A DNA stretch of 64,000 nt, from NCBI GenBank assembly GCA_003223135.1, contig QHXX01000038.1, positions 27,672 through 91,671 of the forward strand, read 5' to 3'. Below the pieces are notes generated by a model. It saw nothing but the letters and a program-made list of their open reading frames with translations, was not told the origin of the DNA and did no database searches. Origin of the DNA: Acidobacteriota bacterium (GTDB taxonomy: Bacteria > Acidobacteriota > Polarisedimenticolia > Gp22-AA2). This document shows, piece by piece, positions 58,946 to 63,940 of this stretch. Position 1 is the stretch's first letter; each line of letters begins with the position of its first letter. The translations under genes were made by a program, and so were the position numbers.

Positions 58946-61900
58946 ATGCCCGAAAGTCCTGACCGTCTCATCAACCAGCGGTATGCCGTTGTCCGCCTCC
59001 TTGGCGAAGGAGGCATGGGATCGGTGTACCTGGTGCGGGATACCTACCAGGGGGGCCGGCAGATCGCCCTGAAGTTCCTGCGAGCCGAGGGGCTCAACAG
59101 CGAGACCGTCGAGCTCTTCAAGGAAGAGTTCCGCTCCATGGCGCGCCTGCGCCATCCGAACCTCGCCGAGGTCTACGACTTCGGCACGATCGAGGGCGAC
59201 GGCCGGCATTTTCTGACGATGGAATATGTGAAGGGGGAGGATCTTGGCCGGCAGGGGCGTGCCGAGCTCGTCGAGCGCTTCGATAGCCTGGCCGTGCAGG
59301 GCCTGCGGGCCCTCGATTACATCCACTCGCGTGGCCTCCTGCACAACGACATCAAGCCCCACAACATCATGATCCACCCTCCGTTCCAGGTGAAGCTCCT
59401 CGATTTCGGGCTGGCCCACGGCCAGGCCGAATCGGCCCGGCCTGGTCTCAGCGGGACGCTGCATTACATCGCACCCGAGCGCTTCGGAGACAAGAACGTC
59501 GACGAGCGTTCCGACCTCTATTCCCTGGGTGTCATCCTGTACGAGGTACTCACGGGATCGTTGCCGTACCAGGGAAAAGAACCCGGCCAGGTGGTCGGAG
59601 CGATCCTGCGAGGCGAAGTGCGGCCTCCCCGTCAGCTGAACTCCGCGGTTCCAGAGCGCCTCGAGGCGTTCGTCATGGCGCTCATGGAACGCGCTCCCGC
59701 CTCCCGTCCGGCCAGCGCGGCCGCTGCGCTGGACCGACTGAACACCGGCCTGGCGCAGCCACACCGGATCGATACGCCCGAAACCTACGCCAGCTTCGTG
59801 ACTTCGGGGCGGTTCGTGGGCCGCGACCGGGAGTTGAGCACGCTGATGCAGCTGGCGACGGAGCATGTGCTGGCCGCCGAGGCCGACGACCGATTGCCGC
59901 GACTGGTGCTGCTGAGCGGTCCAAGCGGAATCGGCAAGAGTCGGTTGCTGCGCGAGCTGAAGCACCGGCTGCAGCTCGCCGGCATCCGCAATCTGACCGG
60001 ACGCTGCTACGAGGACGGCGGCGTGCCGTTCCATCCATTCGTCGAGGTCCTGCGGCAGCTCGCTCGTCCGCCGGAGCTGCCGTCCGAACTGCGGGCGGTC
60101 GTCGACCAGCTCGTGCCGCCCGAGACGCCCGCGGGGCAGGGGCAGCCCACCGGCCCCGGGCCGGCGGAGAGACTCGGCAAGAAGGAGTTCATCCGCGCCG
60201 TCGGGGAGTCTCTGATGCACATGGCGCAGGGTGTGCGCGGCGTCGTGTTCCTCGAGGATCTGCACTGGAGCGACGCGCCCGGAGTCGATCTCCTGGAGCA
60301 CCTCGTGCTCAGGCCAGGCCGCGGCCCCTGGCTCTTCATCGGCAGCCTGCGGGACGAAGAGGCACGCTCTGCGCCGATCGCAGCCCTTCTCAAAGGCCTC
60401 TCCGGCGCCGCGCGCGTCCTGCCGGTCTCCCTCGATCCACTCAACACCGAACAGGTGACCGAGCTCCTGGCCTCGATGGTCCCGTTCGAGGAGCGGCCCG
60501 AGGGCCTCGCACGCATTCTGGCCGACCGCACCGCGGGAAATCCGCTGTACCTGGAAGAGCTGATGAAGGCGCTCGCCGAAGAGGGAACGCTCAGGCGTCA
60601 CGGCCGGGCCTGGATCGCCGAAAGCCGCACGCTCGACGCCATCCGCCTGCCGCCGAGCCTCGCGAGCGCCGTCGTGAAGCGCCTGTCTGCCCTGGCCGCC
60701 GGCGAGCGGCTGGTGGTGGAGGTCCTGGCGGTCTTCAACCGGCCGGCCGACGCGAAGTCCATCGCACTGGCGTCGGGCCTGGACGAAAAGACAGTCGAGG
60801 ACGCGATCGAAGGGCTCAACCGGCTGCGGCTCGTCGCGCTGGAGACGGAGGGGGACGGCCGGTCGGTGATCGGTCTGGCGCACAGCCGGATCCGAGAGGC
60901 CATCTACAAGGAAATCCCCGAGGAACGGCGTCGTGCCCTGCACCGGGCCGTCGGCGTGGCCATCGAGGAGGCCCACGCCTCCTCGATCGAAACGATCGTC
61001 GAGGAGCTGGCGCACCATTTCACCGCCGCCGTCGATCGCGCGCGCGCCGCCGACTTCTGCCTGCGGGCGGCCAGGAAGGCCAACGCCCTGTTCTACCCGC
61101 AGCGCGAGCTGCAGTTCCTGGTCCAGGCGCTGGAGTTCCTGCCGGAGGGGGACACCGCCCGGCGATTCCCGGCTCTTCGAGACATGAGCTGGACCCAGGC
61201 TAACGACCTGCGCGACCACGAGGGGGCGGTGCGCACCGGCCGCCTGCTGCGGGACGAGGCCCGGAAGGTCGGGGACCGGATGTACGAGGCGATCGGGCTG
61301 CGCCAGATTTCATGGTCCCAGGGGTTCATGGGCGACGTACGGGGCGCCCTCGAGAACGGCCGGCGGTCCCTCGCCCTTGCGCGTTCGGCCGGGAACAAGG
61401 AGCAGCAGGGATTTTGCCTGAACGTCCTGGGCGCGATCTACGCGACGCACGGGGATCATGCCCGGGCGATCGAATGCTTCAACGAGGCCCGGTCGATCTT
61501 CGAGCCGATCGGAGAGATCGTCGGCCTGATCAACGTCACGAACAACGCCGGGCTCAATTACCTCGGCCAGGGAGACGCCGGAAAGGCCGCGGAACTTCTG
61601 GAGAAGGTGCTCGAGACCGCCCGGAAGCACGCCATGCCGAGCCGATACTACCGGACGCTTCCGAACCTGGGCATGGCCCGCTACGAGACGGGAGACCTCC
61701 AGGGCGCGATTCGGGTCATCGAGGAGGCGCTGGCCTGGGGGCGCGAGCACGTCTACCCGGAGGTGATCGTCCAGTGCCTTGAGGGGCTCGGATGCATGCT
61801 GATGTACCAGGGACGCTTCGATCGGGCGCTGCGGTGTTTCGAAGAGCAGCGCGCCGTCATGCGTGAGACGGGCAACCGCTCCGGTTTTCCTGTCGTCTTC

Positions 61901-63940: not shown

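Follow-up and report, generated by a model that had tools for sequence, protein, structure and literature searches.

A 1664-residue protein links a Hanks-type kinase to a sigma-54 activator

The stretch of DNA analysed here, 64,000 nucleotides from contig QHXX01000038.1 of the Acidobacteriota assembly GCA_003223135.1 (referred to below as the window), carries near its right-hand end a very long gene for a predicted transcriptional regulator. The gene occupies positions 58946..63940 of the forward strand, as do all window features described below on that strand, and from Pfam and the reading of the open reading frame (ORF) its product runs in the order kinase, STAND, TPR, GAF remnant, sigma-54 AAA+ domain and helix-turn-helix (HTH). 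The ORF is open over its full length of 1664 amino acids (aa), and the same frame is already open from 58805; an MPESPD-type N-terminus common to the homologs supports the start at 58946. The product is 100% identical to GenBank PYT36464.1 ('MAG: hypothetical protein DMF52_07555 [Acidobacteria bacterium]', MAG standing for metagenome-assembled genome), encoded on a contig of 91,671 bp. Modules were assigned with Pfam and equivalogs with NCBIfam, motif coordinates were read directly from the DNA of the window, and invariant residues, as well as the gap in the GAF domain described below, were judged on an alignment with 11 full-length homologs. A first-pass annotation made from the sequence of the window had proposed a single polypeptide with a kinase, a STAND NTPase, a TPR scaffold, a GAF domain and a complete bacterial enhancer-binding protein (bEBP) output. 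The single ORF and four of these five parts were borne out, with intact motifs; the GAF domain was not.

The N-terminal module is a Hanks-type Ser/Thr kinase (58982..59716, aa 13-257), matched by Pfam Pkinase PF00069 with an E-value of 1.7e-43 and a score of 149 bits against a cutoff of 31.7. It contains a G-loop (GEGGMGSV, 59003-59026), a lysine, Lys43, within IALKFL, a catalytic loop of the non-RD type in which HRD is replaced by HND (HNDIKPHN, 59342-59365), a DFG motif (59402-59410, within DFGLA, 59402-59416) and an SGT...APE segment (59450-59479). The G-loop, K43, E61, D135, K137, N140, D153-F-G and P177-E178 of the APE motif are invariant in the aligned homologs. With all its catalytic residues present and conserved, the kinase looks active, as the first-pass annotation had supposed.

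The kinase is followed by a STAND nucleotide-binding oligomerisation module (59810..60880) made of an AAA_16 P-loop domain (Pfam, aa 289-465, E 6e-23), a helical domain and a winged helix, with a Walker A motif GPSGIGKS at 59918-59941 and a Walker B motif VVFLEDLHW, which includes FLEDLHW, at 60242-60268. An AlphaFold2 model of aa 269-795, built with 44 family sequences, was confident (pLDDT 88.8, pTM 0.86), and its best Foldseek matches were Apaf-1 (1z6t and 3sfz, E about 2e-10), the STAND-TPR protein 6mfv, CED-4 and NLRC4, with animal and plant NLRs likewise among the best structural matches. Since a confident model matches these proteins, the STAND assignment stands on fold as well as on sequence. 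From residue 647 or so onward the model consists entirely of helical repeats, and this TPR- or MalT-like sensor arm (60884..62530, approximately aa 647-1195) gives TPR_12, TPR_2 and TPR_MalT matches in Pfam at aa 795-976; its sequence matches in the PDB are to TPR proteins only. The modelled region is thus that of a STAND NTPase of the MalT/Apaf-1 class, in which a P-loop nucleotide-binding domain with helical and winged-helix domains precedes a repeat sensor.

At the C-terminus lies a sigma-54 interaction AAA+ domain with its lid (62987..63715, aa 1348-1590), recognised by Pfam, NCBIfam and structure matches alike. Pfam places Sigma54_activat PF00158 at aa 1348-1514 (E 9e-73) and AAA_lid_14 at aa 1520-1590. 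The module contains Walker A (GESGTGKE, 63071-63094), the GAFTGA sigma-54 contact loop (63212-63229, aa 1423-1428), Walker B (LFLDEVG, 63275-63295), FREDLYFRL (63446-63472) and GNVRELEN (63632-63655), and it is followed by a Fis-type HTH (63791..63889; HTH_8, aa 1616-1648, E 7.6e-10). No variation is seen across the family in GAFTGA, in either Walker motif or in the arginine-finger region. The protein therefore has the features that define a bEBP, namely an AAA+ domain with both Walker motifs, a GAFTGA loop and a C-terminal HTH, and the motifs quoted in the first-pass annotation are present. The closest solved structures of this module are NifA (9qq6, E 1.9e-85), ZraR, FleQ and NtrC1. Nevertheless, it falls under every NCBIfam equivalog cutoff. 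The best match, NifA TIGR01817, scores 362.9 bits where 528.85 is required, and since the score is below that cutoff the label 'Nif-specific regulatory protein' used by the source is an over-annotation.

The fusion defines a widespread family

The first-pass annotation considered a direct fusion of this kind rare, a view that the database matches overturn. The 120 best matches span 19-100% of the query. None scores below 592 bits, more than one would expect from an isolated sigma-54 module, and in at least 115 the kinase/STAND modules of the N-terminal part occur together with the sigma-54 module. Most are 1.65-1.85 kaa long, and some proteins of 2.0-2.4 kaa have an added GGDEF domain. Their sources are labelled Acidobacteriota (including Polarisedimenticolia), Planctomycetota, Verrucomicrobiota and others, and the proteins bear automatic names, among them 'sigma 54-interacting transcriptional regulator' and 'Nif-specific regulatory protein'. 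When contigs were searched with the family alignment, which contains generic sigma-54 motifs, mostly ordinary bEBPs were recovered, and only two contigs (L002 and L018) were spanned over the full length of the protein. The gene is real and belongs to a real family, whose input logic is unusual among sigma-54 activators. The family consists of widespread, experimentally uncharacterised one-component regulators of about 1700 aa, common in uncultured soil Acidobacteria, with the module order Hanks kinase, STAND NTPase, TPR sensor arm, GAF, sigma-54 AAA+ activator and Fis HTH. This architecture is common in databases and undescribed in the open-access literature searched, where we found no description of a kinase-STAND-bEBP fusion.

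Several known systems share parts of this order. GAF-domain bEBPs of the NifA, NorR and FhlA type have the same succession of GAF, sigma-54 AAA+ domain with GAFTGA and Fis HTH, but the family described here adds about 1200 N-terminal residues comprising the kinase, the STAND NTPase and the TPR arm, and the window copy, unlike these proteins, is without a GAF core. In MalT and the LAL proteins, and in PknK of Mycobacterium tuberculosis, a P-loop STAND module likewise precedes a TPR/SUPR sensor arm, and PknK has an N-terminal Hanks kinase joined to a MalT-like STAND region (Krupa & Srinivasan 2005, PMC1262709). The outputs differ: a sigma-54 AAA+ domain with a Fis HTH here, a LuxR HTH in MalT/LAL, and no DNA-binding domain in PknK; the GAF layer is also additional with respect to both. 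An identity as a LAL/MalT-family transcription factor fails for want of a C-terminal LuxR-type HTH in Pfam: LuxR/GerE is not among the 25 best of 33 Pfam families matched, and the C-terminus is a sigma-54 AAA+ domain followed by HTH_8. The TOMM kinase/cyclase fusion TIGR03903 shares the kinase-AAA_16-TPR chassis (194.6 bits over aa 415-1066), but its output is a nucleotide cyclase instead of a bEBP. Membership in TIGR03903 was rejected, the score lying far under the cutoff of 705.75 and the protein having no cyclase domain. Finally, the FHA-domain bEBPs of Myxococcus xanthus are sigma-54 activators coupled to Ser/Thr kinases, a separate kinase being read through the FHA domain; in the present family, by comparison, the kinase is fused in cis and a STAND switch lies between kinase and bEBP.

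The window copy lacks a GAF core and is a mosaic of two lineages

What remains of the GAF domain in the window copy (62609..62920, aa 1222-1325) is the N-terminal third and the last helix. The Pfam GAF match covers profile positions 108-129 only and lies under the gathering score. In the alignment, 58 residues of the core are missing at the junction 62836|62837, and this core, which reads LKE..IRSLLCVPL..GTVYVDTRKAG in relatives, is kept in 11 of 11 homologs. Hence, the GAF domain of the first-pass annotation is a fragment in this copy, whereas a complete GAF fold is found in all homologs examined, including those of the two lineages described next.

The window was compared, from position 49213 onward, with a 207-kb ENA scaffold (L001; sample SAMN08902887, assembly ERZ28573530), which we use as the reference of lineage A and which has an intact GAF domain. 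The reference of lineage B, contig L090, shares this sample and assembly and was found by a k-mer search with the tail of the window; it begins inside the GAF domain, with the core intact. The link of this soil sample to the MAG of the window is unconfirmed. Positions 49213-57184 and 57185-62836 are 99.86-99.88% identical to lineage A, with two in-frame gaps, one of 174 nt at the GAF core and the other, 189 nt long, in the HD-GYP/GAF/GGDEF gene upstream. From 62836 to 63931 the identity drops to 91%, and past the stop codon there is no similarity. A per-base mismatch map resolved this last part. Immediately left of the junction, a patch at 62804..62836 has only two differences from A (62830 and 62832), both of the B type. 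Right of it, 62837-63130 shows no difference from A and 48 from B, while 63181-64000 shows 97 differences from A (87% identity) and about 14 from B (about 98%). The order along the window is consequently A, a tiny B patch, the 174-nt gap, A, and then B. The map rules out a switch from A to B at the deletion junction itself and places it at 63131..63180, a run of about 50 nt between the Walker A and GAFTGA motifs in which the two lineages do not differ.

Most likely, the window copy is an assembly chimera of two co-occurring lineages, with a backbone from A and the last 820 nt or so from B, and the loss of the 58-aa GAF core and of a 63-aa segment with the HD motif of the neighbour are probably artefacts of assembly rather than biology. 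The breaks lie within the conserved cores of domains, the places at which an assembly graph built from mixed strains and paralogs forks; A and B may be strains, or paralogous loci of one genome. We also weighed whether the sequence is correct as deposited, that is, whether it represents a natural recombinant that truly lost the GAF core in frame, with a parallel inactivation of the neighbouring HD-GYP enzyme. The encoded protein would then be either a bEBP freed of GAF repression, and so constitutively active, or a dead regulator. NorR and certain NifA proteins are known to become constitutively active once their GAF domain is removed. In the window copy the ORF is uninterrupted and every other motif intact, both deletions keep the frame (by chance, 1 in 9), and at neither junction is there a repeated k-mer or a microhomology to account for a collapse by the assembler. 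However, natural recombination does not readily account for three lineage switches (A, B patch, A, B) together with a deletion inside 400 nt, and an independent assembly of a single soil sample separates A from B, with the GAF domain intact in each. Moreover, all six other assemblies in the same 90% cluster have an intact GAF domain and an A-type C-terminus (6/6), and the 39-mer spanning the junction was absent from both large collections searched, genome contigs and metagenome contigs. We consider a natural recombinant improbable on this evidence. A GAF-less or HD-less variant inferred from a single MAG contig would probably be wrong.

The second deletion affects the conserved upstream neighbour, an HD-GYP/GAF/GGDEF protein of 804 aa (56346..58760). 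The 189-nt (63-aa) gap at 57184|57185 removes the catalytic H...HD(IGK) motif, which is kept in 5 of 5 orthologs, and the Pfam HD_5 match accordingly spans profile positions 51-170 only. On either side of the gap the sequence is 99.9% identical to lineage A. In the neighbour's cluster, the members listed are 867, 834 or 824 aa long and never have the deleted length, a further point against a natural deletion. An ortholog in a homologous locus (L083) is also 804 aa long, but this does not make that length normal, for the L083 protein is shorter at its N-terminus and keeps the HD motif.

Overlapping contigs place a predicted sigma-54 promoter and a small secreted peptide beyond the window

The last 60 nucleotides of the window (63941..64000) open the regulatory region downstream of the gene. 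Two candidate enhancer half-sites, the first of the series, lie in them: ATCTCA at 63966-63971 (stop +26) and TGAGAC at 63995-64000 (stop +55), both at the same offsets in L090 and L082. We compared this region with that of five homologous loci (L082-L086), whose large proteins are 40-77% identical and which share upstream Phosphodiest/TPR and HD-GYP/GAF/GGDEF or GGDEF genes. In these five loci and L090, 28 of the 68 hexamers of the form TGAGAY/RTCTCA (GTCTCA/TGAGAC) fall within 1.9% of the sequence; shuffles gave a mean of 1.9, and none of 2000 reached 28. In all six loci the hexamers begin at a conserved offset from the stop codon.

A strict sigma-54 promoter pattern (TGGCAY-N5-TTGCW) occurs nowhere in the 64-kb window and nowhere in L001. 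It occurs exactly once, as TGGCAT-N5-TTGCT, in each of L082, L083 and L084, between the big gene and a small ORF, and near-consensus sites are found at the equivalent place in L085 and L086 and in L088-L092. Three of the latter contigs (L088, L089 and L092) overlap the tail of the window over its last 220-826 nt at 98.3-98.7% identity and continue beyond it. They place a TGGCAT-N5-TTGCT promoter at the window-equivalent position of about 64,273 (about 270 bp past the end of the window and 330 nt after the stop codon) and the start of a peptide at about 64,353. Across L088-L090, L092 and the five loci, the putative promoter has the form TGGCAT/TGGTAT-N5-(T/C)TGC(T/A) and is accompanied by clustered candidate binding sites; 60-80 nt beyond it comes a small ORF whose product has AIWG(G) repeats and a signal peptide of the Sec type, then a terminator. 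The expectation that a sigma-54 target lies just downstream of the window is, because of these overlaps, borne out for lineage B as far as promoter and gene can be recognised from sequence. The AT-rich stretch TAAATATAAT at about 63950-63960, which had been pointed out in connection with a downstream target promoter, finds no support as the promoter; no sigma-70-type promoter matched it in the equivalent sequence of L088.

The peptide ORFs lie at L088 998-1321, L082 11333-11557, L083 12593-12928, L084 12693-12917, L085 12759-13094, and L086 12831 and 13149 (uncalled ORFs). They encode 74-111 aa with a Sec signal and 2-8 AIWG(G) repeats, some ending in C..C, and always lie behind the sigma-54 promoter, adjoining a giant bEBP. 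The peptide family comprises 96 database clusters, all 'hypothetical', and is matched by no Pfam or NCBIfam model; seven of the listed contigs with such peptides are equal in size to contigs of big-gene homologs. From this comparison, the promoter would drive a secreted AIWG-repeat peptide, in an arrangement kept down to 40% protein identity.

Directly after the peptide gene comes a second giant kinase-STAND-GAF-bEBP paralog of 1705-1709 aa (L083 13045-18162, L082 11740-16869, L091 681-5801), which is more divergent. Public gene calls often annotate only its C-terminal 500-710 aa, the full call being present in L091, and an apparent 3-kb gene-less gap in three homologous loci, in which Rfam detected no RNA family, is simply this under-called paralog. 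At the end of the locus lies a short third bEBP gene with its own TGGTAT-N5-TTGCT promoter upstream (L082 17030, L083 18324, L084 18303, L085 18596, L090 7531 and L091 5962). A third bEBP behind a sigma-54-type promoter of its own suggests a regulatory cascade at the canonical locus.

This arrangement raises the question of which protein acts on the peptide promoter. The second paralog or the third bEBP could switch it on, while the protein described here acts elsewhere or mainly as a kinase. The presence of three bEBPs in the canonical locus, the possible cascade, and the retention of the gene by lineage A without the peptide block all fit such an arrangement. In L086, on the other hand, which is only 40% identical, the first bEBP alone adjoins the peptide genes, and the promoter and GTCTCA sites are still present, which favours the first bEBP as the activator; the candidate sites also start at a conserved offset from the stop codon of the big gene in six loci. 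Control by one of the other two bEBPs seems to us unlikely. Far less likely still is a regulator independent of sigma-54, a repressor or a sigma-70 activator that merely keeps the AAA+ scaffold. Some proteins of the bEBP family, such as TyrR and FleQ in some of its modes, do act without sigma-54. Against this possibility stand the invariance of GAFTGA, of Walker A and B and of the arginine-finger region, together with a canonical -24/-12 promoter conserved beside the gene.

A proposed mechanism

Sigma-54 activators are the textbook case of regulated AAA+ ring assembly, with REC, PAS, GAF, V4R and PRD domains as known inputs. By analogy with MalT and Apaf-1, the STAND module would open and oligomerise when the TPR arm senses a ligand and ATP is bound, which would gather the C-terminal AAA+ modules into an active ring. 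The GAF domain might serve as a second, intramolecular brake, as in NifA and NorR, and the clustered kinase could phosphorylate itself or partner proteins. Phospho- and nucleotide-gated control, which the first-pass annotation had proposed, is a reasonable expectation from the domains and no more than that. The activator would then bind the clustered GTCTCA/TGAGAC sites that start 26 nt past its own stop codon and act on the canonical sigma-54 promoter about 330 nt downstream, leading to expression of the small Sec-secreted AIWG peptide.

Several observations weigh against this account, in addition to the in-frame and repeat-free deletion junctions discussed above, which count against a chimeric copy. 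No rpoN gene was found among the 20 ORFs scanned in the 64-kb window. The lineage-A scaffold has no sigma-54 promoter, peptide gene or paralog block downstream, and because of this different context the adjacent-target model may not apply to the organism that gives 98% of the window. It may be the two further bEBPs of the canonical locus that really activate the peptide promoter, and the mechanism itself rests on analogy. Balancing these points, we regard as moderately probable the joint explanation that the protein is a family regulator with a STAND-driven mechanism and a downstream output, present in the window as a chimeric copy.

If this is correct, a large, conserved family with a STAND switch and an active-looking Hanks kinase ahead of a sigma-54 activator would embody a new input logic, one polypeptide joining sigma-54 transcription to kinase signalling of the eukaryote-like type and to NLR-like switching. 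The comparative data supply a concrete predicted target, consisting of the GTCTCA/TGAGAC sites, the -24/-12 promoter and the AIWG-repeat peptide. A more speculative idea, to which we give little credence, is that in uncultured Acidobacteriota the bEBP and the secreted peptide form an autoinducing loop akin to quorum sensing. Once exported or processed, the peptide would be recognised by the TPR arm in the manner of RRNPP receptors, and STAND oligomerisation followed by formation of the sigma-54 ring would close a loop reinforced by the second giant paralog and the sigma-54-dependent third bEBP. Autoinduction of this kind, if true, would make the protein a cell-cell signalling receptor of a new class, one whose output runs through sigma-54.

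Genomic context

On the lineage-A scaffold, the big gene is followed at L001 15134-24320 by a convergent gene of 346 aa, two unannotated genes of about 380 aa, a Peptidase_C39 ABC exporter and a second ABC protein. In the window, two genes of the diguanylate-cyclase type lie within 17 kb of the bEBP, a REC-GGDEF gene (41796..42965) and the HD-GYP/GAF/GGDEF gene described above; the family-wide presence of the latter type as a neighbour hints at a link to c-di-GMP signalling. The remainder of the window (1..49212) looks like ordinary chromosome, with rsmB, fmt, an AsmA-like gene, proS and PMT-type glycosyltransferases, and further with an ABC exporter, sucC, FG-GAP/TPR proteins and PBP1.

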